A stretch of DNA of 64,000 nucleotides from IMG/VR virus record IMGVR_UViG_3300035698_015309. One strand, 5' to 3'. The stretch comes from a virus. Its lineage: Duplodnaviria; Heunggongvirae; Uroviricota; Caudoviricetes. Position numbers and translations under genes: made by a program. Within the stretch, counting starts at the first letter, position 1. Each line of letters opens with the position of its first letter. The notes beneath the pieces are model-generated. The model searched no databases. It was not told the origin of the DNA and saw only the letters and a list, made by a program, of their open reading frames with translations. This document shows, in pieces, positions 9,372 to 63,790 of the stretch.

Positions 9372-9534
9372 GTGTGTACCGACCAGCTTATTAAACTACC
9401 ACTCAGTCGGTGGAATTGAACCACACCTTGGCTTTATCAGAGCCACGCTCGAACACGAGCTACGACCTTGTAGTAGGACTGGCTACCTACATCTTCGGTT
9501 TATCAGACCGCTGTTCTAGCCGGTCGGTACACAC
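9372..9534 (-). other. structured element bounded by a perfect 13-bp inverted repeat (GTGTGTACCGACC / GGTCGGTACACAC), immediately downstream of a minus-orientation promoter motif (9535-9565)
   Basis: Internal hairpins GCTCG-TGTT-CGAGC and GGCT-CTGATAA-AGCC, a T-loop-like GTGG-TTCAATT-CCAC, and a duplicated CTGATAA. Confidence 0.3.
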
Positions 9535-9982: not shown

Positions 9983-10004
9983 CTGTGTGTATAGGGGGGG
10001 ACAG

Positions 10005-12365
10005 ATGCCCAACTGGAACCGAATAGCCCACAGCGCCAGCAAAGTAACCGGCAAGGTCCAAACGATGGTGGAACATCTGTTGGGGGTTGAAGCGCTGACT
10101 CTCCGTTTCCTGGGCACCCACTTCCCACCCCAGCACGTCAGAGAGGTTTCTTTCGCCAGCCGGGGGCATGACATCGGCAAATACAGTCCCCTGTTCCCTG
10201 ATGTACTGAACGGGGTAGCCCGAGGGGTGCTGGATCATTCCTCACCTGGAGCCTGGGTTGCTTACGACCGAGGATCCCTCCTCGCTTCCCTGTTGATCGC
10301 CGGACACCATAGGGGTCTGCCGGATTTCTCACGCGTCTATTTGGGGTGTGTCCTACGCCCCTCTGCACAGCCGATGGGTAGCGGGACTCATCCTAACCCC
10401 GGTGTCTTCCATGTCTATCCGGGGCCAGCGAAAGACTTGTTGGTTCCCCTACGTGAGGATGGCATCGAGCTTCCTGAAATCAATATAAATGATGATGAGA
10501 CCTTCTTTTCTTTTTCTGAACTGGTGAAAGGCTGGCAGTTGTCCATTGCCAAGGGCTTGGATGTCCGAATGGCCTTTTCTGCGCTCGTTGACGCCGACTT
10601 CCTGGACACCGCCGAGCACTTCAAACCAGGGCGCACCTGTCCCAACCCCCCGTTGGACGCCGGTCTCGCCCTTGACGTTTTGAACAAATACATCGACGGC
10701 CTCAGTGCCAAGAGCAAACGCAGCGATGGTGCTTCCCCTGTGGTGCAACAGGAACGGGACCGTCTACGACAGGACTGCCTCAGAGCCGCCCAGGGGCCTC
10801 CAGGACGCATTTTGACCTGTACAGCCCCCACCGGTGTAGGCAAAACTCTAGCGCTGGTCTCGTTCGCCCTGGCGCACTGTCAGGCCCACCAACTTAAACG
10901 GGTGATCATCGCTGTACCCTACAAAAGCATCATTCAACAGACGGCGAAAACCCTGAAGGAGCTTTTCAAGGACCGGGCCTTCGGTCCCCACTTTGTGTTG
11001 GAGCATCACACGGACGCCACGCAGTGGGTCGAAGAGGAGGATCTCCAACAGGATGGTAGATCAAATGAGATTGACCGACGAGGGCTCACTGAAAACTGGG
11101 ATGCACCAATCATCCTCACCACGAACGTTCAACTATTGGAGTCCTTGTTTTCCAATCGGCCAGGGAGATGCCGGAAACTCCACAACATCCAGGACTGCGT
11201 GATCATTTTTGATGAGGGCCAGTCTTTGCCCAGCCACCTTATGCTCCCCACAATAGCAATGCTCGACCGACTCAGCCGTCAGTATCAGGTCACGGTGGTG
11301 TCTGCCACGGCCACCCAGCCTGCCTTCCAGAGCATCCTGCCTCAGGTAGAAACACTCGTGGGGGAACCGCTCCAGCCCTACGAGGAGATTGCCTCCGCCC
11401 CCGTAGCCTCGGCCAAGGCGATGGTCCGCAACAAGTTTCACTGGCCGCACAACGACGACGAGAGGTGGACCTGGGCGCAGTTGGCTGACCGGGTGTGTTC
11501 GGAAAGGATGTCAAACCTCGTGCTTCTCAACAGGAAGGACCATGCGGAAGCGGCCTGGAGGGAAATACAGACACGGTGGGGGGCGGATCGAGCTATCTAT
11601 TTGACTTCCAACCTGTGTCCAGCCCACCGGAAGGGGCTACTCAAAGAGGTGGTTCGTCGGTTGAAGACCGTTGGGGACTACTTCGTTCTGGCAGCTACTC
11701 CTTGTGTGAACTCAGGGACGGACTTCGACTTCAACAGGGGCTTCCCGGCCATGGGACCGTTGGATGGGACGGCACAAACCGCTGGGCGGGTAAACCGGGA
11801 GGGCTTGCGGGTACTAGGGGACATCTTCGTTTTCCGCCCGGACGTTGAATACAAGGACATGTTCCCGCATGACGAGTGGTTCCAGGCTGCTGCCCGGATC
11901 ACGGAGCGGTTCCTCCGGCGCTACGGACAACGTCTCGACCCGACGAACCCGGAAATCTTGACCCAGTACTATGAGGCCCTCTATCGGGAAGCAGGGCTAG
12001 ATCACCCGGCCACCAAAAAGATCATCGAGGCGTACCAGGAGGGTTCCTTCGAGAAGGTCAGTCGACGCTACCGGGTCATTCCCGACAAAGGGGTCCAGGT
12101 CGTCGTTCCCTACCTGGAAGGAGGGTGTGGGGAGCAGTACAGGAAACTCAACAAGGAGCGGCCCACCCGGAAAAGCTTCCGGATGTGGATGAACCGAGCG
12201 GCCCTGCTATCGGTCTCTGTTCTGTCACTGAAGAAGGATCACCCCCTCTGGCTCAGCCTTGACCCCGTCACGCTGAAAAGGAAGGACGGCTCCATCACCG
12301 AAACGGGCTGGTACATCTGCACTGACCCAAGAGCCTACCACCCGGAACTTGGGCTGGTGCAATGA
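10005..12365 (+). CDS. cas3: Cas3 (HD nuclease + SF2 helicase)
   Basis: HD motifs (HDIGKYSPLF, IAGHHRG). Walker A CTAPTGVGKT. DEAD-like IFDEGQS. Start ATG 10005 after a GGGGGGG RBS; the listed GTG at 9987 lies inside the promoter motif. Confidence 0.9.
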   Translation: MPNWNRIAHSASKVTGKVQTMVEHLLGVEALTLRFLGTHFPPQHVREVSFASRGHDIGKYSPLFPDVLNGVARGVLDHSSPGAWVAYDRGSLLASLLIAGHHRGLPDFSRVYLGCVLRPSAQPMGSGTHPNPGVFHVYPGPAKDLLVPLREDGIELPEININDDETFFSFSELVKGWQLSIAKGLDVRMAFSALVDADFLDTAEHFKPGRTCPNPPLDAGLALDVLNKYIDGLSAKSKRSDGASPVVQQERDRLRQDCLRAAQGPPGRILTCTAPTGVGKTLALVSFALAHCQAHQLKRVIIAVPYKSIIQQTAKTLKELFKDRAFGPHFVLEHHTDATQWVEEEDLQQDGRSNEIDRRGLTENWDAPIILTTNVQLLESLFSNRPGRCRKLHNIQDCVIIFDEGQSLPSHLMLPTIAMLDRLSRQYQVTVVSATATQPAFQSILPQVETLVGEPLQPYEEIASAPVASAKAMVRNKFHWPHNDDERWTWAQLADRVCSERMSNLVLLNRKDHAEAAWREIQTRWGADRAIYLTSNLCPAHRKGLLKEVVRRLKTVGDYFVLAATPCVNSGTDFDFNRGFPAMGPLDGTAQTAGRVNREGLRVLGDIFVFRPDVEYKDMFPHDEWFQAAARITERFLRRYGQRLDPTNPEILTQYYEALYREAGLDHPATKKIIEAYQEGSFEKVSRRYRVIPDKGVQVVVPYLEGGCGEQYRKLNKERPTRKSFRMWMNRAALLSVSVLSLKKDHPLWLSLDPVTLKRKDGSITETGWYICTDPRAYHPELGLVQ

Positions 12366-12459
12366 AAAAGTCTGCGGACAGGGGTTCCTTTTGCGACTTC
12401 ATTGAGTAGTAAGAAGTGCCGCCGAAGAAACTCGGCTGGATAAACAGACGGAGGGACAG

Positions 12460-13131
12460 ATGAAAAAAGGTATGCTGCACGGGTTGGAAGTGTGGGGGGA
12501 CAATGCCTGCTTCTCCCGCCCAGAGGTGACGGAGCGGACCACCTACCCCATCCCAACCCACTCAGCCTGTCGGGGGATCTTCGACGCTATCTACTGGAAA
12601 AGGTCCGCCAACTTCTACTGGCAGATCGTCGGGGTAGAGGTTGTGAACCCGATCCGGTACATGGGGATCATGCGGAACGAGATGAAAGACAAGGTCACCC
12701 GCCGCACTCTTCAGGTTGATCTTACAACCCAGAAGCACCGGACCCAAAAGCACACCAGGACTCTCCTGGACCCCCGGTACCGCATCTTCGCACGGGCGGT
12801 CTGCCGGAATCCTGATGGGAACACCAACGCCATCGACGCCCAATTCCGTCGTCGGGCGGAGAGGGGCCAATGTTTCCACCAGCCCTTCTTAGGTTGCAAG
12901 GAGTTTATGGCCAACTTCCAGCTTGTCCCGGTGGATGAGCATGATCCATCACAGGGACTCGCAGACCTTCAGGTGGACGTGGGGGTGATGGTCTACGACA
13001 CCTTCAATCTGCTGGTGCCCGATGGAGATCCTTCGGTCAGCGTGTTCCACGCACAGATCAAGGATGGGGCCGTGGCCTACCCGGAGTTCACTGATAGTGC
13101 CGCCGTGTTCCGGCCAGGGGGTGCAGCATGA
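12460..13131 (+). CDS. cas5: Cas5c (Cas5d) type I-C pre-crRNA endoribonuclease subunit
   Basis: 223 aa directly after cas3. GLEVWGDNACFSRPE...YWKR resembles Cas5d N-terminal blocks. ATGA overlap with cas8c. Confidence 0.8.
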   Translation: MKKGMLHGLEVWGDNACFSRPEVTERTTYPIPTHSACRGIFDAIYWKRSANFYWQIVGVEVVNPIRYMGIMRNEMKDKVTRRTLQVDLTTQKHRTQKHTRTLLDPRYRIFARAVCRNPDGNTNAIDAQFRRRAERGQCFHQPFLGCKEFMANFQLVPVDEHDPSQGLADLQVDVGVMVYDTFNLLVPDGDPSVSVFHAQIKDGAVAYPEFTDSAAVFRPGGAA

Positions 13132-14960
13132 GTGGTATCGGACAGAGCCTCCTCAACTATGCCGCACACTATATGCCCCAGCAGGCTCCGGTGGGGTACG
13201 AGTACCTGACCGTCGTGGAAACCGTAGTGTGCCTGACCCCGGACGGGAAGTACCAGGACTGTCACCTCAGGGACACCAAGACGGCCTCCCCGATCCTGAC
13301 ACCTCGGGTGCCCTCCAATTTGCTCAGGGCCACGCCCCCCAAGACTCACTTCTTCATCGGGTATGTCCCCCAGGTGTTCCCTCTCCTCGTGGCCGAACCG
13401 CACGACAACACCAAGAACGAGGTGAAGAGGGGCCTCTTCCTGGAGCAGATCAGAACGGTCATCAAGGAGGTTCCCTGCACTCGGAAGTACCTGACCCCCA
13501 TCCAGACCTTCCTGGAGGACGACGAGCAGGTCGCCCTTGTGGTTCAGGCTCTGACGAAGATGGAGGCAGACCTCAAGCGGGCTGTGATCTTCCAGACCGA
13601 GGGGAAGAAACTCGGCATCCCGTTCCAGGACAAGAAGGAATGGCGGGAGTGGTGGGCGACCTACCTTTCAGGAGCGGACAAAAAGAAGAAGACCAGCGAT
13701 AAGACGTTCCGCTGCGTCGTCACCGGGGACGAGATCACGAACCCCTGCCGCATCCATCCTGACGGCATTGCCTTCGGCACAACGAAGACGAAGCTGGTTG
13801 CCGCCAAGCAGACCTCCAGTCACCACTATGGCCAGGAGTCTGGCCTCGTTGCTCCGATGTCAGACCAGACGGCGAGCACAATGACCCAGGCTCTGGTTCA
13901 TGCCGCCCAAAACGCCGGGACGGCCTTTGGGGATCTTCGAATCCTTGTGTGGGCTTGTTCCAGGGGAGAAACCCTTACGGGGAAGGCTGGACTGCTGGCG
14001 GGCCAAGGGCCGGTTCTTGAAGGGGGCGAGTGGACCCAGATCCTGTCCGACGTTATGTCCGACCTCTTGAACTCGGGATTGACGGATGGGGAACTCCGGG
14101 GTGCCACCCGGAAGGTGAAGGAATACCTGGACACGGGCACCGGACCGGGAGGTGTCCTAGACATGGACTGCACCTTGGGCATCGTTTCTAGCAACGGTCC
14201 CCGGTTGGCTGTCCGGCACTGGGAGACTGGACCCCTGTCCGTCCTGTTCAAGAACATCTATCGATGGTATCAGGATATGACCATCAGCAACAACCGCAAT
14301 GACACGGGGATCGCCCGCCTTTCTGCACTCTGGCAGATCCTTTCCGCTGTCAACGGCCCAAGGGGCAAAGCTTCCGAACTGGAGCGTGAGATGCTCGTTC
14401 AGGTAGCCCTGCGGGGCCAGTCGGTCCCAATGAGCATTGTCAAAAAGGCCCTGGTGCAGTTCCGGTCACAGTTGCACCTGTCCATCAAACCGTCAACCAA
14501 CATGGGGATCGCTCCGGCATTGCCGGGAATCCTCAAAACCTTCATCAACAGGAGAGGGAACACCATGTGTGAAGCAGGATTGAACAAGGACCACCCGAGT
14601 GTGGCGTACCAGTGTGGGCGGTTGTTGTCCGTCCTGTCCGAACTCCAGAGCCTCGCCATCGGTGGGAGGAACCCCCCGATGGCCCTGGCTGCTCAGTTCT
14701 CGTCCGCAACGATGCAGAACCCGGCCCGTGCGCTGGCCCGGTTACTGCTCCGTTCCGAGAAGCACGTCAACAAGCTCGTCCGACAGGGAAAGGGATGGGC
14801 GGATCACAAACGGCAGGAGATCGTCGACCGCCTGCCCACAGACCTTCCGACCCGCCTCGGCATCGAGGATCAAGCTTTGTTTGCCATGGGGTTGCTCCAC
14901 CAGCGCTCGTCCTGGAAGAAGCAGGACAAGCCCGCAGGGACACCCCCGATTAAGGCATAG
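13128..14960 (+). CDS. cas8c: Cas8c (Csd1) large subunit
   Basis: 610 aa between cas5 and cas7 in canonical I-C order. Size typical. No closer motif recognised by eye. Confidence 0.75.
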   Translation: MSGIGQSLLNYAAHYMPQQAPVGYEYLTVVETVVCLTPDGKYQDCHLRDTKTASPILTPRVPSNLLRATPPKTHFFIGYVPQVFPLLVAEPHDNTKNEVKRGLFLEQIRTVIKEVPCTRKYLTPIQTFLEDDEQVALVVQALTKMEADLKRAVIFQTEGKKLGIPFQDKKEWREWWATYLSGADKKKKTSDKTFRCVVTGDEITNPCRIHPDGIAFGTTKTKLVAAKQTSSHHYGQESGLVAPMSDQTASTMTQALVHAAQNAGTAFGDLRILVWACSRGETLTGKAGLLAGQGPVLEGGEWTQILSDVMSDLLNSGLTDGELRGATRKVKEYLDTGTGPGGVLDMDCTLGIVSSNGPRLAVRHWETGPLSVLFKNIYRWYQDMTISNNRNDTGIARLSALWQILSAVNGPRGKASELEREMLVQVALRGQSVPMSIVKKALVQFRSQLHLSIKPSTNMGIAPALPGILKTFINRRGNTMCEAGLNKDHPSVAYQCGRLLSVLSELQSLAIGGRNPPMALAAQFSSATMQNPARALARLLLRSEKHVNKLVRQGKGWADHKRQEIVDRLPTDLPTRLGIEDQALFAMGLLHQRSSWKKQDKPAGTPPIKA

Positions 14961-15020
14961 TCTCTAATGGCCTAAGGTGGGCCTTAGAGTTGGATTAGGC
15001 ATAAAGTGAGGAGAAGTATC

Positions 15021-16031
15021 ATGAAGGATCTTTTGATGTGGCTGAAGAGTGGGACGGCGGCAATCGGATACAGGTTCGAGATCTTGTTCCTGTTCGATTG
15101 TCTGATGGGGAATCCCAACGGTGACCCCGACTTCGGCAACCTGCCCCGGACCATCCCGGACACGGGACACGGGTTCGTCACCGACGTCGCCATCAAGCGG
15201 CGTCTCCGCAACTACGTGAGTCTCCGCAAGGCAGGCAAGACCCCGTACCAGATTTTGCTGATGATGAACACCTGTACCAACAGGCTCATCGCCAAGGCCC
15301 ACGAGGACTCCCACGGGACCGTCCCGGCGAAGGCTACCAAGCAGGAGGAGCGGGCGGCGGGTGACCGGATGTGCCAGGACTATTGGGATGTCCGCACCTT
15401 CGGCGGTGTTCTCAACACAGGTGCCAAGGCGGGCCAGATTCGTGGACCCGTCCAGGTGGTGAGTGCCCGGTCCCTCGATCCGGTATCCATCCAGGAGATC
15501 ACCATCACCCGCATGACCGACACCAAGGGCTCCCCTGATCCCAAGAAGGTCAAGACCCCCAAGGATCAGGGTTTCTCCTCCGCCCAGTGGCAGGAGTATG
15601 AGGACGGGGCCGAGGCGGCGGCTCTCCGCACGATGGGAACCAAGGCGATCATCCCCTACGGTCTCTTCGCTGCCAACATCACGGTGAGCGCTTTCGTGGC
15701 GGAACAGACGGGCTTCTCGGCGGAGGATCTGGCCCTGATGATCGAGGGTCTGGAAAACATGTACGACCATGATCGGACCTCCAGCAAGGGTTTGATGACC
15801 TGTCGGGGCATCTACATCTTCAAGCACGTCGGGACGGCGGACGACCCCGAAGAGCGGGCACAGCAGGCCAAGCTCGGGTGCGCCCCGGCCCATAAGCTGC
15901 TGGACAACGGACGCATCGTGACTGTGGTCAAAAAGGACGGGGTAGAGGCCCCGATGTCCTTCGACGACTACACTGTCACCGTGGACGAGTCCAAGCTCCC
16001 GGAAGGTGTCGAGTTCCGGGCCATCCAGTAA
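15021..16031 (+). CDS. cas7: Cas7c (Csd2) backbone subunit
   Basis: MGNPNGDPDFGNLPR signature near the N-terminus. AGGAG RBS before ATG 15021. Last cas gene before the leader and array. Confidence 0.85.
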   Translation: MKDLLMWLKSGTAAIGYRFEILFLFDCLMGNPNGDPDFGNLPRTIPDTGHGFVTDVAIKRRLRNYVSLRKAGKTPYQILLMMNTCTNRLIAKAHEDSHGTVPAKATKQEERAAGDRMCQDYWDVRTFGGVLNTGAKAGQIRGPVQVVSARSLDPVSIQEITITRMTDTKGSPDPKKVKTPKDQGFSSAQWQEYEDGAEAAALRTMGTKAIIPYGLFAANITVSAFVAEQTGFSAEDLALMIEGLENMYDHDRTSSKGLMTCRGIYIFKHVGTADDPEERAQQAKLGCAPAHKLLDNGRIVTVVKKDGVEAPMSFDDYTVTVDESKLPEGVEFRAIQ

Positions 16032-16227
16032 GGCCCTTTGCGAGCGGTTCCGTGGCGACGAAAACCCCGGAGTCGCTCGCAACCCAGAAAACCCCGTGAT
16101 CTGGGGTCGTTATACCGCAGCCGTTCTTTGATAACCGAACCAAACGGCTTGAAAAGTGACGGTTGGGAAGGACCGCTCGCAAAGGGGGCGGGAAAGCTGC
16201 GTCCCACAACGGTTTGCGAGGGGCACT

Positions 16228-17418
16228 GTCGCATCCTCTAACAAAGGATGCGTGGATTGAAACAGAGAGTACGTGCAGGCGTCCAGCGGGCTCAAGCCAA
16301 CGGAAAGTCGCATCCTCTAACAAAGGATGCGTGGATTGAAACGTTACTGCCCGCATGACACCCCGGATGAGATCACCAGTCGCATCCTCTAACAAAGGAT
16401 GCGTGGATTGAAACACTGTGGACCTGGCGGGGAAGAAGCCGACCTATGGTGGTGTCGCATCCTCTAACAAAGGATGCGTGGATTGAAACTTTCAAACAGC
16501 GACCCAGTCGAGTGCGACTTGGTGGGTGTCGCATCCTCTAACAAAGGATGCGTGGATTGAAACAAGTGCCTCGCCGTCAAGGATCCAGAGGGGAAGCTGA
16601 AGTCGCATCCTCTAACAAAGGATGCGTGGATTGAAACAGGCCCACAGAACGGCTCCCACGGCCTGGGGACGCCGTGTCGCATCCTCTAACAAAGGATGCG
16701 TGGATTGAAACGCTCAGAGGACTGCTCGACGGGACAAGACGGTCTTCCTCGTCGCATCCTCTAACAAAGGATGCGTGGATTGAAACTCGAAGTTGGGCGA
16801 AATCCAGGAATGACGGTCACAAGTCGCATCCTCTAACAAAGGATGCGTGGATTGAAACAATCCGATGACACTTCCCTTTCCTGTCCGCCCTTGGAGCGTC
16901 GCATCCTCTAACAAAGGGTGCGTGGATTGAAACGAGATCCCCCTTGCGACTCCCGCCCTGAAGGCGCTGGCGAAGTCGCATCCTCTAACAAAGGGTGCGT
17001 GGATTGAAACGTAAGCGAACTCCACCCCTGGTCCGTGGGTGACCGGTCGCATCCTCTAACAAAGGGTGCGTGGATTGAAACGCAGTGAGCCAGCGCCCCA
17101 CGAGCCATGCCTGCCTTACTGTCGCATCCTCTGAAAAAAGGATGCGTGGATTGAAACTAAATCCGATTTACGGGGAACTGGCTGGTCGGCTCACGTCGCA
17201 TCCTCTAACAAGGGGTGCGTGGATTGAAACGCTGATTCGGACTGATCCCTGAGAAGGCGCAACCCTGCCGTCGTACCATCTAACAAGGGGATGCGTGGAT
17301 TGAAACGAAACCGCAGCGAGGCAGAAGGGGTCACTCCCTCACGGGTGTGTGGATTGAAACATTAGGGTAGTAAGTGTAGACAACCTCGTCGTTCCCATGA
17401 GGGGGCGTGGATTGAAAC
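16228..17418 (+). CRISPR. Type I-C CRISPR array: 15 well-conserved 36-37-nt repeats (GTCGCATCCTCTAACAAAGGATGCGTGGATTGAAAC) plus 2 degenerate terminal repeats. Spacers 35-43 nt. Leader at 16035-16227.
   Basis: Repeat starts 16228, 16307, 16379, 16454, 16528, 16602, 16676, 16751, 16823, 16898, 16975, 17046, 17121, 17195, 17270; degenerate ends at 17360 and 17418. Distal repeats carry GGATGC->GGGTGC/GGGGTGC variants. Repeat ends in the I-C-typical GTGGATTGAAAC. Confidence 0.95.
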
Positions 17419-18430: not shown

Positions 18431-18816
18431 GTCGTATCCTTTGACAAAGGGTACTTGACAGTGCCCTTCATACCTGCTAAAGTCTAACTGTTCCTGCTTG
18501 AAACAGGGAGCTGTTGCGGCAGGAAAGCTCATGCTGATTGGGTAGGAGGTTCTGGTGTGCCCAGATGTTCTGGGGACGAACGCATCAAAACTAACGATCA
18601 TCCGAGAGGCATAAAACGAGTGCTAAGAGAGCGATTCCGTGTTAAACGGACCAGTTCCTTGGGATTCGGACGGAAGGAGCAACCGTCATTCGAGCCCTTA
18701 CCGTTGGGCCGGAAGTTTACTACCGAGGTACTTGGGACACCAAGATTCGGCACAGCTTCAAACTTGATGCCTGTTACATTTTAGCAGGTTTTAAGGAACG
18801 GTATGTGGATTGAAAC
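18431..18816 (+). repeat. Solitary CRISPR repeat split by a mini-element: 5' hairpin part GTCGTATCCTTTGACAAAGGGTAC (18431-18454) and 3' handle TGTGGATTGAAAC (18804-18816)
   Basis: The two halves reconstruct a repeat variant with the same hairpin. Insertion is at the stem-loop/handle junction. Confidence 0.65.
18449..18802 (+). mobile_element. Miniature omega-RNA-only element, copy B: LE palindrome GGGTACTTGACAGTGCCC (TTGACA-17-TAAAGT) fused by internal deletion to the tnpB 3' end/RE
   Basis: LE matches 7697 and 36179(-). Junction CTTGAAACAGGG|AGCTGTTGCGGCAGG identical to copy C. RE identical to the tnpB copies. ORF 18557..18784 is the in-frame remnant. Confidence 0.7.
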
Positions 18817-35825: not shown

Positions 35826-36179
35826 ACCGTTCCTTAAAACCTGCTAAAATGTAACAGGCATCAAGTTTGAAGCTGTGCCGAATCTTGGTGACCCAAGTAC
35901 CTCGGTAGTAAACCTCCGGCCCAACGGTAAGGGCTCGATTGACGACCGCTCTAATCGCCCGAATCCTAAGGAACTGGTCCGTCGAAGACGGAATCGCTCT
36001 CTCAGCACTCGTTTTACGCCTCGTGGATGATCGCCAGCTTTGGTGTGTTCATTCCCAGAACATCTGGGCACACCAGAACCTCCTACCCAATCAGCATAAG
36101 CCTTCCTGCCACAACAGCTCCCTGTTTCAAGCAGGAATAGTTAGACTTTAGTAAGTTTGAGGGGTACTGTCAAGTACCC
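35826..36179 (-). mobile_element. Miniature omega-RNA-only element, copy C (minus strand): LE palindrome GGGTACTTGACAGTACCC at 36162-36179, RE at 35826
   Basis: Reverse complement is near-identical to copy B including the deletion junction. ORF 35844..36071(-) is the remnant frame. Confidence 0.7.
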
Positions 36180-36196
36180 TCCACCATGGGGATTGT

Positions 36197-37326: not shown

Positions 37327-37932
37327 ATGTCCGTCAAATTCACCAAGAAAGGCATTGCCATCGAAAAGGGTACCACTCCCCCCTCGTGGGAGGACACCGA
37401 CCAGCAGTATCAGGAGTACGTGGGCCACCAGCTTCTCAAAGCTCGACTGGAGCACCTGAAAATCTTGGAGGAAATCGCAGGGGTGCTGCCCGTGTTCGAG
37501 GAACGGCACCTCCTCAATATGGAGGCGCATCAGGCAGCGATGATTTACCTGAACCTCCCGGATCCAGGCCCCCTTTTCCCGAGCTACCAACGAAACTTTA
37601 TCACCATGAACACCACGGTAATGGACCCTGCAATTTCCTGTGCCGGGGTGATGCCCCATGTCAGGGTACTTCTTGGGTGGCTCGCTTTTCCTGAGACAAT
37701 CCGAGAAGGCGTCTGCTACCACCTCTTGACGGCGGGACGTGCTCTTTACCCTTTTGGATACGACTCAGGCCGTTCGGGTTTCACCCTCCTCCAGGAGCGT
37801 GTGGGACACTGCGTCGCTGCCGGTCTCGCTGCCTGTGAAAAACTCGGTTTTGATGGTACAAGGACGCCCCGGAAATCGGTGGTTGAACAACTCGTCCAGA
37901 CTGCGGCCCTTCTCACGGAGGACACCGAATGA
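37327..37932 (+). CDS. hypothetical protein
   Basis: GAGTAGAC plus AGGAGG upstream. Confidence 0.4.
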   Translation: MSVKFTKKGIAIEKGTTPPSWEDTDQQYQEYVGHQLLKARLEHLKILEEIAGVLPVFEERHLLNMEAHQAAMIYLNLPDPGPLFPSYQRNFITMNTTVMDPAISCAGVMPHVRVLLGWLAFPETIREGVCYHLLTAGRALYPFGYDSGRSGFTLLQERVGHCVAAGLAACEKLGFDGTRTPRKSVVEQLVQTAALLTEDTE

Positions 37933-38696
37933 GCACCGCAATCATCGTACTCGGTCATGGTGGTGGGATCCCCGTCCCTGGGATGGGCAACACGAACTTC
38001 GCCATCGTCCCGAATGCCCCCAGAGGGATCCCCGGACCAGAGTTGCTCCAAAGCCATCCCTTCTGGTTGGTCGACTGCGGACCAGAGACCCTCGCCACCC
38101 TGGTCGGGTTGCGTGCCCTGAAGAACCTGAAGGGGATCTTCATCACGCACGTACACTACGATCACACTGGGGGCCTACTCGGGCTGGCCTACACCTTCAA
38201 ATACATGTTGAAGCGCAAGATCCCTCTCGTGATCCCCAGCAAGCTCCAAGTGCTGCTGGAACAAACGATGGTGGAGTTGACACGGACATCAGGTGGCCCA
38301 GCTAACGTGTGGTTGGACTACTGGCAGGGCTGCTTCCTGGGGAATGGTGCTGACCTGGAGGTGGAGGGTTTCACGGCGGAGTTCTTCCCCGAGGATCACA
38401 ACATCGAAGATTTCCCTGTCTATGGGGTCAAGATCCGGGTGCCCTCCTTGCGTAAGGTTTACTTCACAGGCGACACCGTTAACCCCTCGGACAAGGACGC
38501 AGACATCATCTTCCAGGACTGTCAGGTCTACGGGGACGATTCCAAGTACGACGTCCACTGTTCCTACCAAAAAATCCTCCAGGCGTTCCCCGAAGGATGC
38601 CGGGAACACGTCATCCTCTGTCACTGCCCCCCGCAACCGCAGTTCGAGGAGGACGGTTTCAAGCACGCCACGCAGTGGAGAGTGTTTTACGTCTGA
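37929..38696 (+). CDS. metallo-beta-lactamase-fold hydrolase (RNase Z-like)
   Basis: FITHVHYDHTGG (HxHxDH). Stop is 8 nt before the solitary CRISPR repeat. Confidence 0.6.
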   Translation: MSTAIIVLGHGGGIPVPGMGNTNFAIVPNAPRGIPGPELLQSHPFWLVDCGPETLATLVGLRALKNLKGIFITHVHYDHTGGLLGLAYTFKYMLKRKIPLVIPSKLQVLLEQTMVELTRTSGGPANVWLDYWQGCFLGNGADLEVEGFTAEFFPEDHNIEDFPVYGVKIRVPSLRKVYFTGDTVNPSDKDADIIFQDCQVYGDDSKYDVHCSYQKILQAFPEGCREHVILCHCPPQPQFEEDGFKHATQWRVFYV

Positions 38697-38704
38697 GTGC
38701 CTAA

Positions 38705-38740
38705 GTCGCATCTTTTGGCAAAAGGTGCGTGGATTGAAAC
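38705..38740 (+). repeat. Solitary CRISPR repeat GTCGCATCTTTTGGCAAAAGGTGCGTGGATTGAAAC
   Basis: Identical 5' GTCGCATC and 3' GCGTGGATTGAAAC. Stem-loop sequence differs from the array repeat but stays self-complementary. No second repeat within 200 nt. Confidence 0.8.
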
Positions 38741-38743
38741 GGC

Positions 38744-39336
38744 GTGACCCCTGACAGATAGATGATCGCCTGACCGCTCACGGGGTCATAGGAACCCTTA
38801 ACGGTCAGGGACGCCTCCGCCGGGCGGGACACCACGGGGATCTTGGGCCAGTCCCGGATGAGGATCCCAACCAGCCGCTCGGACTCCTGGACGATTCTGT
38901 GGGGCGGGATGAGCAGCGTGAGGGTGTCCCCATCGAAAGCAACGGGATGGAACCCCCGCTTCCACAACCACTCTAACAGGACGATCAACTCGGGGTGCTC
39001 CTCGGCCAGGATCTGGATGCCCTTCACCAAGGGGCGGAAGGCGTTGTCCGGTAAACCGAACGCCGAGTCAGGGATCGAGACCTCGGTGAGGCCCTCTGTC
39101 CAAGCACCCCACTGGGGATTCACGGGAACGGTACGGGGAGCGCCACGCTTGCCCCACAGCGCCCCCAGAGCCTCCTGTTCCTGTGCCTGCTCCTCTTCGG
39201 TCAACTGGACCCACAGGAGGCGCTCACGGGACACGAAGCCCTGGTCCTCATCCGGGGTCCAGGGCAGTCCTTCGGGAAGTGCCCTGCCTACGAGGATCAT
39301 GAGGGCCAGGTCACGGTGCTGTTCTAAAAGTGTCAT
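38744..39336 (-). CDS. hypothetical protein. The listed ORF runs on to 38701 because the CRISPR repeat is open in this frame.
   Basis: 198-aa ORF (211 aa as listed). The last ~12 aa (...PFQSTHLLPKDAT) are encoded by the repeat. Confidence 0.35.
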
Positions 39337-39485: not shown

Positions 39486-39671
39486 ATGGAGCCCATCCTT
39501 CTGACTATCAACGAGGTTGCCCGTTTGTTCGGGATGCACCCAAATTCGATCCGTAAACTCATGGGCGATGGCAGACTACCCTTTCTTAAGATCGATAAGT
39601 CGCTGCGGTTCGAAACTGATGCCGTGATGCTATTTATTGAGAAACTCAGGAAACAGAGAGCGAAGGATTGA
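39486..39671 (+). CDS. MerR/excisionase-type HTH protein (IS607 TnpA N-terminal-domain-like)
   Basis: INEVARLFGMHPNSIRKLMGDGRLPFLKIDKSLRF. GGGAGAA RBS. Confidence 0.55.
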   Translation: MEPILLTINEVARLFGMHPNSIRKLMGDGRLPFLKIDKSLRFETDAVMLFIEKLRKQRAKD

Positions 39672-41067
39672 CGTCTTGAAAGTCACTCGCATTCTTCAGG
39701 CAGATGTTCCGCCTGCTTTGTTGCAGGTGTGTCGAGCTACCAGATTTCTTCGTGCAGATGTCTGGCGTCGGTACGGTGCCCTGAAGAACGTGGGTAAAAG
39801 TGCCTTGGCTATCCGTAAAGAAATTGTAGCAGGTGGCATCTACGTCACTCTCGCCATAGACGGGACCATACGTAACGAAACAACCAAAGATGTCGTGAAC
39901 GACATCCTGTTCTACAAAGCAGCAGCGAAAGGAAAGGTTCGCAAAGCCATTTGGCAGCGCACCGACAATGAAATGGAACGCAAACGACTCTACACGCTTC
40001 TGCGATCAGACGCATGGATGGAGGATCCCTTCCTTCACCGCCAAATGCGTAAACACTTCAAGCACGGCGTCTCACACACGAAAAATCAGTTTATCGTGAG
40101 GTCCGACAAATTCAAAATAGAGCACGTTAATGGGTATCTGACGATCGTCATCCAAATTGCCCGTAAATACGGTGACGACATAGTTCTAACGACAACGTCA
40201 AACGGCACGAGTGTGGATCTGAGTAGCTGTAACCTACGCATCATTGTGAAGGGTGGTACAACTGAGATCCACTACAGCGTGGATAAAAGCAGTGGGCGTC
40301 CGCATGGTAGCCGGACGCTGGGCGTTGATAAAGGCTACACCGAAGCATTTGTTGATTCGGATGGTGAGCATCAGGGTGAGCAGTTCGGTGCTGTGATGAC
40401 TGAGTACAGCGACAAGGTCAGCAAGACGGGTTCCGCTAGAAACAAGTTGTACGCCCTAGAAAAAAAGCATCGTCAAAGCGGAAACTCCAGAAAAGCTGAC
40501 AACATCAGGGCACACAACCTTGGGTGTAAAAAGATTGATGCTCGTAAACGATTGGCTCAAACACGACTACGGGGTGTAGCCTTTAAGGCTGCTCATGCCA
40601 TCGTGGATAAGGCAGCGGTGGTCGTGTCAGAAGACTTAACCTCTCCGATCGCAAAAAAGCGACCTTGGAAAAGGTTTAATAGAAGAATGAGTGGCTGGGC
40701 AAAGGGAGCACTTGCTGAGGCCCTCGATTCAGTTTGTACGCAGCGTGAAGCCAGCCATGAGTTGGTAAACTGTGCTTACACATCGCAAATGGACTCTGTA
40801 ACGGGTTTGCTGCAAGGCAAGCGTGTTGGAGACAAATTTTACCGTATTAACGGGGATGTTATTCAGGCCGATCACAATGCTGCGCTGAACGTGTTAGCCC
40901 GGTTGTCTGACAAGGACATCGGGTGTTTCACCCCTTATCAAGAGGTAAAACGCATCTTGTTGGCACGTTCTCCGGCGGAACTGACCGTCAAAAGGCACGA
41001 GTTGCAGTCGAGAGGCTCTCAACCGTGTGCGGATAAACCCTCACGATCAGGAGTGATCAATGCTTGA
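39637..41067 (+). CDS. TnpB-like RuvC nuclease lacking the zinc finger (start uncertain)
   Basis: RuvC-I LGVDKGYTE, RuvC-II VVVSEDLTS, YTSQ then no CxxC, RuvC-III IQADHNAALNV. Confidence 0.6.
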   Translation: MRNSGNRERRIDVLKVTRILQADVPPALLQVCRATRFLRADVWRRYGALKNVGKSALAIRKEIVAGGIYVTLAIDGTIRNETTKDVVNDILFYKAAAKGKVRKAIWQRTDNEMERKRLYTLLRSDAWMEDPFLHRQMRKHFKHGVSHTKNQFIVRSDKFKIEHVNGYLTIVIQIARKYGDDIVLTTTSNGTSVDLSSCNLRIIVKGGTTEIHYSVDKSSGRPHGSRTLGVDKGYTEAFVDSDGEHQGEQFGAVMTEYSDKVSKTGSARNKLYALEKKHRQSGNSRKADNIRAHNLGCKKIDARKRLAQTRLRGVAFKAAHAIVDKAAVVVSEDLTSPIAKKRPWKRFNRRMSGWAKGALAEALDSVCTQREASHELVNCAYTSQMDSVTGLLQGKRVGDKFYRINGDVIQADHNAALNVLARLSDKDIGCFTPYQEVKRILLARSPAELTVKRHELQSRGSQPCADKPSRSGVINA

Positions 41068-49538: not shown

Positions 49539-49745
49539 ATGAAACGAACCATGATCGTCCGAGTGACCACAACCGAATTTGAAACGTCTGATGGACGGGT
49601 GATCCCACACCCCATTCCGTTTGATCCCGATGAGGTGCCTACCGTCGAAGAGTTCCAACAACAGTACAACAGGTGGCGCAAGGTCTTTGAAGATCAAGGA
49701 CTGGTGTTTCCCATACCTGATGCGGGAGATGAGGATGCTGACTGA
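49539..49745 (+). CDS. hypothetical small protein. 3' end overlaps the tnpA start and may be truncated by, or part of, the IS607 element.
   Basis: Hairpin CCTCCAC-N9-GTGGAGG embeds the RBS. Confidence 0.3.
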   Translation: MKRTMIVRVTTTEFETSDGRVIPHPIPFDPDEVPTVEEFQQQYNRWRKVFEDQGLVFPIPDAGDEDAD

Positions 49746-50376
49746 TCGTCTCCTAGCTCTCACCAAAGCAGCCGAAGCTCTTGGTGTTCACCGGAATACG
49801 CTTCGGGACTGGGCTGATGAAGACAAGATCCCTCACGTTCGCACCGTGGGTGGGCATCGCCGTTTCAAGCAATCAGACATTGACAGGTTGCTGGGCAATC
49901 TCCCAATCGATAAACAGCAAACGGAACGAGTTGTTATCTACTGCCGTGTGTCCAGCCACGATCAGAAAAAGTCAGGCGATCTTGAACGTCAGGCTGGACG
50001 GGTCACGATACACAGCATCACGAAGCAGTACAAGTTGGTCGAAGTGCTTCAAGACGTTGGGTCGGGCATGTCAGACACACGCCCAAAACTCCGAAAGTTG
50101 TTCAAACTGGTCAATGCCCATGAAATAGATAGGGTGGTTGTTGAACACAAAGACCGCCTGACTCGCTTCGGGTTCAATCTGGTCAATGCTTACTTCAACA
50201 GTCATGGTGTCACCATCGAGTGGACACAAGAAGTCCTTGGCAAAGGCTATCAGGAAGAGTTGGTCGAAGACATTTTGACGCTCATGTCGTCGTTCTCCGC
50301 TAAGATTTATGGCAAACGTTCGGCAGAACGACGTAAGGCCAAGAAAGCAGCAGAAGCGGCAGAGACAGTCAAATGA
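49720..50376 (+). CDS. tnpA: IS607 TnpA: MerR-like HTH fused to a serine-recombinase catalytic domain (start ATG 49720-49735)
   Basis: LTKAAEALGVHRNTLRDWADEDKIPHVRTVGGHRRF then VVIYCRVSSHDQ (catalytic Ser) ...RQ. Confidence 0.8.
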   Translation: MREMRMLTDRLLALTKAAEALGVHRNTLRDWADEDKIPHVRTVGGHRRFKQSDIDRLLGNLPIDKQQTERVVIYCRVSSHDQKKSGDLERQAGRVTIHSITKQYKLVEVLQDVGSGMSDTRPKLRKLFKLVNAHEIDRVVVEHKDRLTRFGFNLVNAYFNSHGVTIEWTQEVLGKGYQEELVEDILTLMSSFSAKIYGKRSAERRKAKKAAEAAETVK

Positions 50377-51797
50377 AATGTCGCATCTTCCGACTTCATA
50401 AAGATACCAATCAGTCCAAAATCGACAAGTTGGAAGTCCTACACAATGCCTACGTCAAGTACGTCCGTATCTGCGTACAAACGATGCTTGACCAGCGGGT
50501 CTATAATCTCCCGAAAGCCGCCAAACAAACGTTCTTCCCACGGGCCACCAACCTTACGTCTCAGATCGAAAAGAACGCACGAGACCATGCAATACAAATC
50601 GTGAGCGCTTGGGCGAAAGCTACTTATGCTCGTAAGTTGAAGCCAACCATTACCAACCTTAAGCATGACGGTACCCTTACCGATCAGGATGCCAAAGCAC
50701 TCTATGTCATCGGATTGAAGTCCATCAGTAAACCGTGGAAAGTTATTACTCAAGACCATCTCGACGCCTACCACACCCTGTTGGACACCTACGGAGGTAA
50801 TAAGCCTATCGTAAGAAACAACCTACCCATGAGGTTGTCGGAGATGACGGCTCGATTGGAAGATACATCGAAGGCCCCTCTCGGGGATTTCTGGCTGAGA
50901 GTATCCTCGTTAGAAGCTCGTAAGTCCGTCTGGTTACCCCTCGTTGGGAATCCTTACATCCAACAGGCTGATCAGGTCAGTAAAGGCATTTCGGTCCGCA
51001 AGACCAAGCGAGGCTTCTGGCGCTTTGAAGCTGTCAGCAAGGCCGAGTGGGCCGTTCCTGAAGCACAGGAGGGTTGGCCTAAGTTGGGCGTTGACGTTGG
51101 TCTGAACGTCCTTGCAGCTACCTCAGATGGAGTGACCTATGGTGAGCACGTCAAGCCCAAATTCGATAAGCTCTATGCTCGTGTCAGAAATCTCCGAGCA
51201 AATCGCCAACGACAGGATTTGAAAGACAACAGTCCAAGGTTAGATCACCTTGAGAGCAAGTTGAGTGGGTTGATCAAGACAGAAACGGGTCGTGTGGTGA
51301 ATACCCTCATCGCCCGTCATCCCGAGACGGTGTTCGTAGTCGAAGATCTTGATCTTCGAGGTTGCCGGGGTCAAAAGCGGTTCGCTTACAGGGCGTTACA
51401 GATCAACTTGGAAAGGAAGGCTCCAACAAAGAAAGTGAACCCTGCTTACACGTCGCAGGAGTGTCCTTCTTGTGGTTATGTTCATCGAGGAAACCGAAGT
51501 TCAATAAGGTTCCGTTGCCGCTGTTGTGGCAGGAAGGCTCACGCTGATTGGGTAGGAAGTGCTGGTGTGCTCAGACGTTCTGGGAACGAACACATTGGAA
51601 CTGGTGATCACCCACGAGGCGTAAAACGAGTGCTGAGAGAGCGATTCCGTCTTCGACGGACCAGTTCCTTGGGATTCGGGCGAAAAGAGCAACCGTCATT
51701 CGAGCCCTTACCGTTGGGCCGGAGGCTTACTACCGTTGGATCAGATTCGTCTGGCAGCGGCACAGCTTCAAACTTGATGCCTAGTAGATTCAAGTAG
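50373..51797 (+). CDS. tnpB: TnpB (RuvC + zinc finger), intact stop
   Basis: ~90% identical to 7773..9281. CPSCGYVHRGN...CRCCGRKAHADW. Confidence 0.85.
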   Translation: MKCRIFRLHKDTNQSKIDKLEVLHNAYVKYVRICVQTMLDQRVYNLPKAAKQTFFPRATNLTSQIEKNARDHAIQIVSAWAKATYARKLKPTITNLKHDGTLTDQDAKALYVIGLKSISKPWKVITQDHLDAYHTLLDTYGGNKPIVRNNLPMRLSEMTARLEDTSKAPLGDFWLRVSSLEARKSVWLPLVGNPYIQQADQVSKGISVRKTKRGFWRFEAVSKAEWAVPEAQEGWPKLGVDVGLNVLAATSDGVTYGEHVKPKFDKLYARVRNLRANRQRQDLKDNSPRLDHLESKLSGLIKTETGRVVNTLIARHPETVFVVEDLDLRGCRGQKRFAYRALQINLERKAPTKKVNPAYTSQECPSCGYVHRGNRSSIRFRCRCCGRKAHADWVGSAGVLRRSGNEHIGTGDHPRGVKRVLRERFRLRRTSSLGFGRKEQPSFEPLPLGRRLTTVGSDSSGSGTASNLMPSRFK

Positions 51798-52008
51798 GTT
51801 TTGAGGAACGGTTTACGCCACCCTCTCCATCTGTGTAAGAGACTTGGTGCAAACCCTGGACCCGAATGCTTTCATCCTGCATCACGACATCAAACACCCG
51901 CTGATCAGGGCTCTCCTGGCCAGCGGACTTTTCGAGGACACGGGTAAGGTCGCAAGCTACGGGTTCGTCTTTGATCGGCCCGTGTGGAAACTACTTAAGG
52001 AGGACTGA

Positions 52009-61551: not shown

Positions 61552-62988
61552 ATGAGCTTCCCTACCAAAGCCGAGATCCAAAAGCACCTCCCGGAGTACG
61601 TCCGGTGGGTGGAAGCGACCCACAATCTCTCACAGAAAACGGTCCGGTACTATGTCCAGTGTATCCTAGACCTGATCCAAGACCTGTTAGACGTACCCGC
61701 ACACCAGTTCGAAGAAAGGGTGACAACCCGTCTGCAGACCATCCTGACCTTCCAGTCATCCTTTTGGAATGGGCCAGCCGGATTCATGGCCTATTGGCGG
61801 AGGACGGAGGCGTCTCCCTCTCTGAGTCAGAACAATGGAGGAGTTATGAGCTTCCCTACCAAAGCCGAAGTCAAAAAGCACCTTCCGGAATACATCCGGT
61901 GGACCGCTCATAACCGGGGATTGCAGGGGGAGACGATCAAGCACCATCTCCTGTACATCCAGCGATTGATCGATGTGTCCCCAGAACGGTTCACGGAAGA
62001 GTGGGTTGCCCTCAAACAATCGGGGCAGTCTAACTTTGACACAAGCCATTGGTTAGGACAGTCCGGGTTCATGGCCTACTGGAACGAAGCCAAGGGACCG
62101 ATAGGCCGGTTGACCACCGAAGACGTCATCAACCTCTTCCCTGAATACCGGACCTGGGTCGACAGACATCATGATCTGAGGGGCCTCAGTTTGGTCAATT
62201 TCTGTCGGTACATCCAAAACGTGATTGGGAAGAGGGGCGTCAGCCAGATGGTCATCGCTCTAGCTTTAAAAACCCAGCCAGAGTGGTACACCGACGCCTG
62301 GGAAGGCCCCAAAGGCTTCCTGACCTTCCTCAAGGAGTACAGCGCCTCAGAGACCCCAACGGAGGACACCTACAATCCGATAGTGACATCAGAAGACAAC
62401 TTCTCCCCAAATAAAAAGTTCTATGATGAACAGAACAATCCCTGGGAAACAGCGATGCATCGTGTGGCCCGTTCCTTAAGGATCTATGATAGTGAGAACA
62501 TGTCCGCAGAAGTCGTGGCGGACAAGATCCAGGATGTCGTCCAGATCGTGACGAACCGGCCCAACCCGTGGAAGGAAGCGCTCTTGTCCGTGACCAATGC
62601 CTTCGGCTACCCCCCAGAGGGTGACCCCGGACGACCGGCCCGGCAGTTCGCTGGCATGTTCATCCGTCACCTCAAGGGGTCACCGTCGCTGATGCGGGGG
62701 CGTACCTCCCGTGACTGGTTGGCGGCGTTCCGCAAACTGTCAGTCCTGCTGGATGGTGATGATCTGGTGAAGCCCGGAGCGGACCCTGACGACTGTTACA
62801 CCCTGATGGCGAAACTGATCCGGCTGCGGGATGCGGACACCCAGGCCAAGGTGTCGGGCTTCAAGGAAATGCTGACTCAGGCCCTCGCCGCTCGGTACAT
62901 TGAGAAAGAGAAAAACACCCTCCCGAGTACCCCCGTGGACGACCTACTCAGGAAATTGTCCCAGATCCCGACGACTCCCGAAGCCTGA
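61552..62988 (+). CDS. hypothetical protein with a tandemly duplicated N-terminal (S)FPTKAE..KHLPEY(V/I)RW...GFMAYW domain
   Basis: GAGTAGA upstream. The duplication is obvious in the translation. Confidence 0.5.
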   Translation: MSFPTKAEIQKHLPEYVRWVEATHNLSQKTVRYYVQCILDLIQDLLDVPAHQFEERVTTRLQTILTFQSSFWNGPAGFMAYWRRTEASPSLSQNNGGVMSFPTKAEVKKHLPEYIRWTAHNRGLQGETIKHHLLYIQRLIDVSPERFTEEWVALKQSGQSNFDTSHWLGQSGFMAYWNEAKGPIGRLTTEDVINLFPEYRTWVDRHHDLRGLSLVNFCRYIQNVIGKRGVSQMVIALALKTQPEWYTDAWEGPKGFLTFLKEYSASETPTEDTYNPIVTSEDNFSPNKKFYDEQNNPWETAMHRVARSLRIYDSENMSAEVVADKIQDVVQIVTNRPNPWKEALLSVTNAFGYPPEGDPGRPARQFAGMFIRHLKGSPSLMRGRTSRDWLAAFRKLSVLLDGDDLVKPGADPDDCYTLMAKLIRLRDADTQAKVSGFKEMLTQALAARYIEKEKNTLPSTPVDDLLRKLSQIPTTPEA

Positions 62989-63454
62989 TCGTCCGCCCGG
63001 ACCAGCGAGGTTCCTTTCTGTTCGGGTTTTTGCACTCAAAGTGATGGAGATCCTCAAGGAACATCCATCCTTCGGCAGTTGTGAGGTAGTCGAAGTTCAG
63101 CAGCCTCACAGCCTCAGTTTTTGCACACAGGTCTACTGCCAGGACGGAATGGGAACCGTACCGTTTGTGCCACACGTTGATCTCACAGGGGAGATCCTTG
63201 GTGCCCATGAACGAGGGCCACACAGGCTCCTCCACGAACTCCAGTCCGAAACGGTCCAGGGCAGCCTGGATGCCATTAGCGGTTCCGTAACGGCAGCCTG
63301 TGAGATCAACCAGTTCCTCGTACTCCTCGGGGGACACGACCTGCCCCGTCCAGTAGGTGTGGGCGTTGGTCACGGTGATTAGTTGGCAGTCTTGACCAAC
63401 AGCGTTCTCCTGCCGGAACTTTTTCCAGAGGGCCTTCGTGATCCGCTTAGACAT
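62948..63454 (-). CDS. hypothetical protein
   Basis: Start MSKRITK after an AGGAG RBS. Confidence 0.4.
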   Translation of the reverse strand: MSKRITKALWKKFRQENAVGQDCQLITVTNAHTYWTGQVVSPEEYEELVDLTGCRYGTANGIQAALDRFGLEFVEEPVWPSFMGTKDLPCEINVWHKRYGSHSVLAVDLCAKTEAVRLLNFDYLTTAEGWMFLEDLHHFECKNPNRKEPRWSGRTIRLRESSGSGTIS

Positions 63455-63520
63455 CAATTGCTCCTAAGAAAACATTTGACAAGGAGGGACAATTCGTGTG
63501 TTCTTTAGGTGCTTATCGCT

Positions 63521-63557
63521 GTCGCATCTTCTGAAAAGAATATGCGTGGATTGAAAC
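63521..63557 (+). repeat. Solitary CRISPR repeat GTCGCATCTTCTGAAAAGAATATGCGTGGATTGAAAC (37 nt, GAAA tetraloop variant)
   Basis: Conserved termini. Divergent but still self-complementary stem. Intergenic between two minus-strand genes. Confidence 0.8.
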
Positions 63558-63560
63558 GGC

Positions 63561-63790
63561 CTAGAGGACATAGGGTTCTCCCGCCGGGGGTAGGATCTCG
63601 TACAGGTAGTGAACGTCCGGTTTGCCGTCCGTTTTGGAAGCGCAGGATGCCAGGACTCGGAACTCCAAGGGGGTAGGCTTCCGCATGAGCACCACCCGCC
63701 AGGCAAACAGCGCTTCGGCCTCTTCTGTTTCATACACGATCTTCCACAGATCTTTACCAAGCTCCATCGCTGCTAGTGGTGTCTTCATCG
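63561..63790 (-). CDS. hypothetical small protein
   Basis: Start MKTPLAAMELGKD after a GGAGGGG RBS and a minus-orientation GGAGTAGAC. Confidence 0.4.

Follow-up and report, generated by a model that had tools for sequence, protein, structure and literature searches.

A solitary type I-C CRISPR repeat in a strain-specific insert of a probable huge phage

A solitary type I-C CRISPR repeat (SRU) is found on the plus strand between two minus-strand genes, here called A and B, in the DNA of a probable huge phage which carries a type I-C interference operon and a CRISPR array of its own. Comparison of the repeat sequences identifies this unit, hereafter the 63521 unit, as a close derivative of an R13-type repeat of that array, reached by four substitutions. 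Our favoured explanation, to which we give a probability of about 0.45, is that the unit yields a plus-strand small RNA which would be bound and cut by Cas5c and would serve as a Racr-like decoy for Cas proteins. All the steps of this explanation that go beyond an intact type I-C repeat are steps we infer.

The carrier element, its cas operon and its array

The window, i.e. the whole stretch of 64,000 nucleotides that was analysed (IMG/VR virus record IMGVR_UViG_3300035698_015309), was located by the exact protein of a neighbouring gene on the 528,260-bp JGI metagenome contig 3300025697 Ga0208769_1000001. The same protein is indexed in 46 blocks of the collection, 16 of which hold contigs of 0.2-1 Mb. 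Genes in and around the window comprise many orphans together with HNH endonucleases, an NAD-dependent ligase, ThyX, RtcB, a PARP-like protein, a tRNA-Ile and several IS607/TnpB elements, a set similar to that of the huge phages in Al-Shayeb et al. 2020 (PMC7162821). Because no capsid, terminase or other structural gene was seen in the ~92 kb examined, it is from this gene content that the carrier is called a huge phage, which it probably is. In an annotated phage collection there was no DNA match for positions 40000-64000, for the array or for the spacers. Rfam, searched over the window at the gathering threshold, returned one tRNA and nothing else. A tRNA-Ile (GAT) gene is located at 9400-9471 on the minus strand, between a tnpB copy and cas3.

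IS607-family elements or remnants are present at 7698-9216, 49621-51815, 39637-41067, 35826-36180 and 1-256. One element combines a MerR-HTH serine recombinase gene (49621-50376) with tnpB (50373-51797), and a second tnpB is found at 7773-9281. Other copies are TnpB-only or TnpB-less mini forms with about 86-90% mutual identity, and the TnpB-less mini copies finish in ...GGTTTTAAGGAACGGT. Candidate genes for counter-defence or host manipulation encode an Apyc1-like MBL phosphodiesterase (37929-38696) and a WGR-PARP-like protein (5070-6617, minus strand). A weak candidate for a DHH/DHHA1 phosphoesterase starts at 63917, runs to the window end and goes on as L003 8609-9538; it is divergent from the operon in which the 63521 unit is situated. 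Coordinates of the main features are collected in Table 1.

Table 1. Positions of the solitary units, their neighbouring genes and the CRISPR-Cas locus
Feature	Position	Strand	Remarks
Solitary type I-C CRISPR repeat (SRU)	63521-63557	+	37 nt, GTCGCATCTTCTGAAAAGAATATGCGTGGATTGAAAC
Hairpin of the 63521 unit	63523-63546	+	5 + 4 bp flanking one C.U mismatch, GAAA loop; minus-sense -8.1 kcal/mol
TGGATTGAAAC, counterpart of the 11-nt crRNA 5' handle	63547-63557	+	Same in array repeats 1-17 and in the 38705 unit
Strain-specific insert	63455-63566		112 nt; carries the 63521 unit; flanked by 5-bp direct repeats ATGTC
Perfect -35-like TTGACA	63476-63481	+	39 nt upstream of the 63521 unit; -10 region poor (TGTTCT)
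Gene A	63561-63788	-	75 aa, orphan, RBS GGAGG; stop codon 3 nt from the 3' end of the 63521 unit
Gene B	62948-63454	-	168 aa, orphan, RBS AGGAG; RBS within the insert
Second intact solitary unit	38705-38740	+	Begins 8 nt after the stop of the Apyc1-like MBL gene (37929-38696)
Split solitary unit	18431-18816	+	TnpB-less mini-IS607 (~350 nt, about 18452-18801) inside; exact junction presumed
Further solitary unit	L112 12779-12744, 1.4 kb left of the window	+ (window frame)	GTCGTGTCCTTTAGAAATGGATGCGTGGATTGAAAT; two G.U pairs
Type I-C interference operon cas3-cas5c-cas8c-cas7	9987-16031	+	All typed as I-C
CRISPR array	16228-17418	+	17 repeats; 36-nt consensus GTCGCATCCTCTAACAAAGGATGCGTGGATTGAAAC

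Concerning the CRISPR-Cas locus, which lies ~46 kb upstream of the 63521 unit, Cas3 has an HD domain (HDIGK motif) and a helicase, Cas8c is Cas8c/Csd1 and Cas7 is Cas7/Csd2. Cas5c (12460-13131) is homologous to solved subunits of I-C Cascades that are named 'pre-crRNA processing endonuclease'. cas1, cas2 and cas4 were not found in the window or in the flanks read. The array is made up of nine consensus copies (36 nt), the variants R10-R15 and the trailer-end repeats R16 and R17. These last two, GTCACTCCCTCACGGGTGTGTGGATTGAAAC and GTCGTTCCCATGAGGGGGCGTGGATTGAAAC (17270-17418), are 31 nt each with quite different stems, and the spacers of this region are unusually short (23 and 27 nt). R16 and R17 might represent a second array fused to the first, or else regulatory units of crRNA-like type; a search for a PAM-flanked target of theirs gave none. 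In the leader (16032-16227), an inverted repeat of 15 nt (16034-16048 / 16172-16186) is accompanied by the motif GCTCGCAA/TTGCGAG in four copies; these look like sites at which a regulator would bind.

The array spacers have no target in any locus examined. For spacer 9 (16859-16897), the first 12 nt match the phage's own IS607 tnpB at 50705-50719 (minus strand), where the match ends. This seed match directly follows a TTC PAM, and ~0.01 chance matches are expected over all guides and the sequence searched. Such a seed-only self match could be regulatory or coincidental.

The 63521 unit and the junction in which it lies

The sequence, the length of 37 nt and the conserved termini given for positions 63521-63557 in the initial annotation were read back identically. 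Both termini are intact, the 5' one being GTCGCATC and the 3' one a stretch of 16 nt that includes the 11-nt handle; the hairpin is changed. With up to two mismatches allowed, the 14-mer GCGTGGATTGAAAC, which forms the last 14 nt of the unit, has 20 matches in the window where 0.51 are expected. The exact matches number 17: 15 are in the array, one is at 38727-38740 and one is in the 63521 unit. A covariance model of the repeat, built from the array variants, two solitary units and two unrelated viral units, scores the unit at 51.7 bits (E = 1.9e-12). When this model was run unfiltered, no second repeat was detected beside the unit, the nearest full match being the 38705 unit; the 63521 unit is therefore truly solitary. 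As is asked of an SRU, no full or partial repeat is present within about 100 bp. The unit also matches a repeat of defined subtype closely, at an identity of 89% which is marginally under the 90% cut-off of SRUFinder.

The RNA of the unit is predicted to fold as ..(((((.((((....)))).)))))..........., i.e. a hairpin with a GAAA loop followed by 11 unpaired nt (-9.1 kcal/mol); only 5 of 200 shuffled controls fold equally well. The GAAA hairpin described initially is thereby retained, but not the full complementarity of its stem, in which 63528 stands opposite 63541 as an internal C.U mismatch. The unit is intergenic. Genes A and B are both called on the source contig, bearing out the initial description of a plus-oriented unit between two minus-strand genes, and the sole ORF that crosses the unit is spurious (35 codons). 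Near the unit, Rfam gave a chance-level match to CRISPR-DR7 alone (E = 0.85), and a scan found neither an intrinsic terminator nor a sigma-70 promoter at the unit.

The unit is most closely related to array repeat R13 (17121-17157, GTCGCATCCTCTGAAAAAAGGATGCGTGGATTGAAAC), with which it agrees at 33 of 37 positions. R13 is itself 37 nt long and has a CTGAAAA loop, i.e. both length and loop were already present in the array. The differences, at positions 9, 18, 20 and 21 only, all fall within the hairpin: C9U and G20A are a compensatory pair, A18G makes a new C-G pair that closes the loop to GAAA, and G21U breaks one pair. What had been read as a compensatory stem hence comes down to one compensatory pair, beside one change that breaks a pair and one that adds a pair. 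A U9-A pair, a G13 and the GGC directly after the repeat are common to the 63521 and 38705 units, and by these likenesses the two are possibly paralogues. To regard the unit as a third independent sequence solution for the same hairpin was an overstatement, given R13 with its equal length and loop and the features common with the 38705 unit. Formal covariation over 11 repeat variants has the expected direction but is weak (values as high as those observed arise in 41-76 of 500 shuffles), so the hairpin withstands only weakly the objection, raised at the outset, that covariation might be absent. Homology to a gene fragment elsewhere, the other objection raised, was not found.

Three alleles of the A/B junction were seen: no insert, a 103-aa gene, and the 112-nt repeat insert. 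In L119, whose gene A has 86% protein identity, genes A and B overlap at ATGTCTAA and there is no insert. L004 and L005 (about 91% DNA identity) have the 103-aa gene at this place, and L107, L110 and L111 have the 112-nt insert unchanged. Both inserts are bounded by ATGTC and both finish in TTGATGTC, with no similarity between their interiors; around the 112-nt insert the direct repeats are at 63450-63454 and 63567-63571 (read on the minus strand). In plus-strand order this insert holds the reverse complement of the gene B RBS, TTGACA, 39 nt later the 63521 unit, and 9 more bases, which are the final Leu codon and the stop of gene A. TTGACA is not clearly enriched in the window. Neither the whole insert nor the 66 nt upstream of the unit has similarity elsewhere in the sequences compared. 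Because there are three junction alleles, the unit was gained or lost within a small cassette and is not the relic of an array that decayed in place. Insert-free alleles also mean that the unit is dispensable in close relatives. Genes A and B have no match in Pfam, PHROGs or PDB sequences, gene B has no relatives in IMG/VR, and AlphaFold models of A and B made without alignment (pLDDT 48 and 32) are unusable. No recognisable acr or aca gene adjoins the unit.

The same alleles bear on the idea that the unit is a single-repeat guide resembling crlRNA, CreR or Cracr. The handle and GGCCTAGAGGACATAGGG... would then load Cascade onto a partly matching TTC-flanked site so that a promoter is repressed or a rival allele attacked. 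A complete Cascade is available in the phage, as is Cas3, and viral crRNA-like regulators are known, type I-C included (bioRxiv 10.1101/2024.10.29.618823). However, the alleles of L004 and L119 mismatch the would-be spacer within the first 9 PAM-proximal nt. Moreover, in 138 kb of the phage and its relatives, which took in ~17% of the 528-kb genome, no TTC- or TTT-flanked seed of at least 8 nt was found for the sequence after any unit, and no second pseudo-repeat marks a 3' end. We consider a guide function very improbable.

Sister units and the possible roles of solitary repeats

At least four solitary units are present in ~92 kb of the element, all co-oriented with the array. A class of stand-alone, co-oriented repeats, as postulated at first, does exist: the 38705 and 63521 units were confirmed and a further unit was found. 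That the class is functional is a reasonable idea.

The reverse complement of the 38705 unit forms the last 12 codons of the minus-strand gene 38701-39336, homologues of which stop 5-9 residues past the last conserved block and have unrelated tails. In a 93%-identical strain this unit and ~40 nt on each side are unchanged, the upstream gene has 8-16 mismatches per 100 nt, and the divergence is mosaic. The product of the upstream gene (37929-38696) has an MBL fold. Its top three PDB sequence matches are 7t28 (best), 7u2s and 7u2r, with a best E-value of 4e-10; its score for Pfam Apyc1 is under the cut-off. 7u2s and 7u2r are deposited as Apyc1, and 7t28 is deposited as 'putative metal-dependent hydrolase', which we take to be Apyc1 too.

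The split repeat noted initially at 18431 turned out to be a solitary unit interrupted by a mini-IS607. When 18431-18451 is placed directly before 18802-18816, a repeat of 36 nt results, GTCGTATCCTTTGACAAAGGGTATGTGGATTGAAAC, whose stem has 10 bp (-9.0 kcal/mol). It is uncertain how many of the common G residues are owed to the target, and a reconstruction of 35 nt has a poor fold. At its left end the mini-IS607 has a promoter, TTGACA-17-TAAAGT; its 3' end resembles that of an omegaRNA and closes with ...GGAACGGT. Its would-be omegaRNA guide is the split repeat's own 3' part, ATGTGGATTGAAAC. The unit to the left of the window begins 5 nt past the stop codon of a 60-aa gene that is co-oriented with it and, on its other side, directly adjoins the stop codon of a DUF3228 gene that runs towards it.

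Three of the four units start 5-29 nt past the stop of a co-oriented gene, and three touch or run into the stop codon of a gene converging on them. Such positions would suit a self-directed role, in which the units are Cas5c sites for the phage's own I-C system and are not aimed at a foreign one. At gene ends they could serve to cleave or mark transcripts (3'-end formation, separation of convergent transcripts), or they could buffer free Cas5c and Cas7. The match of the units to the repeats of the element's own array, the cognate cas5c in the same genome and the co-orientation of every unit with the array agree with such a role. However, upstream of the 63521 unit no gene runs in its direction, and the unit would be antisense to the operon, so that the logic of a 3'-UTR is inapplicable to it. 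Furthermore, natural Cas5c- or Cas6-dependent mRNA processing of such kind is not established, and in a compact genome any intergenic element can be expected to lie close to a gene end. On balance we regard a self-directed role as unlikely.

The distribution of substitutions was assessed by measuring each unit against its nearest array variant. Over the four units the 11-nt handle takes 1 of 21 substitutions (binomial P about 0.004, computed with a total of 22; P = 0.02 when the reconstructed 18431 unit is left out). Owing to G.U pairs, the plus-sense hairpins are clearly stronger than their minus-sense counterparts in three of the four units (-8.1 vs -2.7, -9.0 vs -2.8 and -10.4 vs -6.7 kcal/mol). 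For the 63521 unit the values are -9.1 vs -8.1 kcal/mol, and with its four substitutions this unit alone adds little to the handle or strand statistics. Taken over the units, the sparing of the handle and the strand-specific folds suggest that a plus-strand RNA, its handle intact, is under constraint.

Since the 63521 hairpin is nearly as stable in the minus sense and lies inside a minus-strand operon, it might instead be a minus-strand element, a reverse-complement hairpin in the A-B mRNA which acts as an intercistronic stabiliser or attenuator and whose CRISPR likeness is historical. Yet there is no U-tract, the terminator scan is empty at the unit, and the sister units fold poorly in the minus sense. 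A role of the hairpin only would leave the conservation of the single-stranded handle unexplained, and we hold this explanation to be very unlikely.

The sister units also bear on whether the 63521 unit has a function at all. It might be a neutral by-product, a piece of the array or of a solitary unit that was recently copied into a variable junction by illegitimate or short-homology recombination, and which may mark or promote cassette exchange. With this agree the distance of just four substitutions from R13 and the presence/absence polymorphism, in which the different insert of another strain has the same ATGTC boundaries. The 18431 unit, broken up by an IS and showing no trace of repair, fits as well, as does the mosaic divergence round the 38705 unit, which is of the kind seen near recombination break points. 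Related huge phages reached via TnpB homologues (55 kb sampled) contain no solitary units. On the other side, the substitutions spare the handle and keep or extend pairing across the units, the G.U pairs are strand-specific, and ~92 kb of compact genome holds four or five co-oriented copies. The 38705 unit, moreover, is unchanged in the 93%-identical strain next to a gene that has diverged. A functionless copy appears unlikely to us.

We therefore come back to the decoy reading. It is established for type I-C that Cas5c binds the repeat hairpin and its 3' flank (Nam et al. 2012 and Garside et al. 2012, as cited in PMC10651486). Its cut at the 3' base of the stem leaves the 11-nt 5' handle on the downstream RNA. 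The 112-nt insert would be a tiny plus-strand transcription unit, consisting of the -35-like TTGACA box and, 39 nt on, the 63521 unit. The RNA would fold as a repeat hairpin and Cas5c, as the pre-crRNA endonuclease of type I-C, would cut it at the 3' base of the stem, at a site predicted between 63546 and 63547. The cleavage products would bear the repeat hairpin or the 11-nt 5' handle and would not include a proper repeat-spacer-repeat guide. Lacking the proper guide form, they would sequester Cas5c and Cas7 unproductively, which is the mode of action of the validated Racrs, RacrIC1 included. The likely victims would be I-C systems in the host or in competing phages, because almost all I-C repeats have the same handle.

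In favour of a decoy are the identity and solitariness of the 63521 unit, the typing of the cas genes as I-C and the likeness of Cas5c to solved processing enzymes. To these are added the substitutions of the four units, which spare the handle, and the stronger plus-sense folds. The 38705 unit follows an Apyc1-like gene of anti-defence type by 8 nt and is kept unchanged in the 93%-identical strain. Unrelated viral contigs bear solitary I-C repeats as well. Against a decoy it must be held that the phage's own I-C effector would be titrated too, because the handle is identical. Evidence for a promoter is weak, as only the -35 box is good and the scan calls no promoter, and a transcript from the putative promoter would have only ~10 nt before the hairpin, whereas RacrIF1 inhibits through its upstream fragment. 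Close relatives can do without the unit, and no acr or aca neighbour was recognised. A scan of a genome collection for a host array returned nothing but I-C arrays of the GTCGCATC type with 32-34 nt, all from unrelated taxa; none was of 36-37 nt.

Concerning the wider occurrence of such units, a repeat-pattern search of IMG/VR returned only two unrelated solitary I-C units, L001 5667-5704 and L002 1995-2026. The solitary repeat of L001 is just past a gene stop codon and is followed by a terminator-like hairpin. A pattern scan of metagenomes gave other copies of the phage's two units and unrelated single repeats, and no related arrays.

A broader view may be taken, although we think it doubtful. 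A CRISPR-bearing huge phage might seed its genome with its own I-C repeats, spread as ~110-nt cassettes, either as Cas5c processing or regulatory sites at gene boundaries or as decoys that poison the I-C systems of hosts or rivals. In its decoy variant, the units would have longer stems and small loops, and the phage's own large-loop array repeats would still be processed.

Comparison with known systems

The class to which the 63521 unit belongs is already known: SRUs have been described from viruses, and several are RNA anti-CRISPRs (PMC10651486). For viral SRUs, Camara-Wilpert et al. 2023 (PMC10651486) showed expression as well as binding and cleavage by the repeat-specific endonuclease. RacrIC1 is located 11 nt past acrIC5, is co-transcribed with it and inhibits I-C interference; RacrIF1 inhibits through the RNA fragment that lies upstream of the cut and is loaded with a Cas7 filament (PMC10651486). 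The 63521 unit shares with these elements that it is a single intergenic repeat mimic in a virus-like element with no second repeat nearby, and that a promoter-like box is found just upstream. With RacrIC1 in particular it shares the I-C architecture of GTCGC, hairpin and GCGTGGATTGAAAC, and the 38705 unit follows an anti-defence-type gene as RacrIC1 follows acrIC5. Unlike the published set, the element encodes its own cognate I-C effector genes and a 17-repeat array. The published SRUs are described as unassociated with cas genes, which is a descriptive property of that survey and not a mechanistic requirement (PMC10651486). Further differences are that the 63521 unit comes from the element's own array repeat and not demonstrably from a host repeat, and that several copies are present per genome.

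CreR, CreA and the viral Cracrs (bioRxiv 10.1101/2024.10.29.618823) are likewise repeat-derived RNAs outside an array which would load Cas effectors, and I-C examples are reported. They differ in having a pseudo-spacer that matches a cas or creT promoter at 9 or more PAM-proximal positions and, as a rule, a second pseudo-repeat. The 63521 unit was rejected as a Cracr, CreR or CreA, as there is no such target in the 138 kb and no second repeat.

The CRISPR systems without adaptation genes that Al-Shayeb et al. 2020 (PMC7162821) report from huge phages resemble the present one in a phage-like genome of ~0.5 Mb, an interference-only type I system, processing by Cas5 and a compact array. The portions of that paper considered here describe arrays and effectors, not dispersed solitary repeats. 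Compared with the variant highlighted there, the system in the window keeps an HD-helicase Cas3. Virus-borne mini-arrays (PMC11656645) are also viral CRISPR components at strain-variable loci. They have at least two repeats and a spacer that matches related viruses, whereas the 63521 unit is one repeat whose flank misses the alternative alleles.

What is new is thus the context: several units that stem from the element's own I-C array, in a CRISPR-armed probable huge phage, one of them in a polymorphic cassette and one split by a mini-IS607. SRUs are a recently validated anti-CRISPR strategy, known mainly from cas-less elements, in which they mimic host repeats. The units described here raise the question of how a CRISPR-armed phage uses or tolerates decoys that fit its own Cas5c and Cas7, and the three junction alleles offer a ready-made comparison for experiments and population data. 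Even if the 63521 unit is a neutral copy, the locus documents the escape of an array repeat into new sites.
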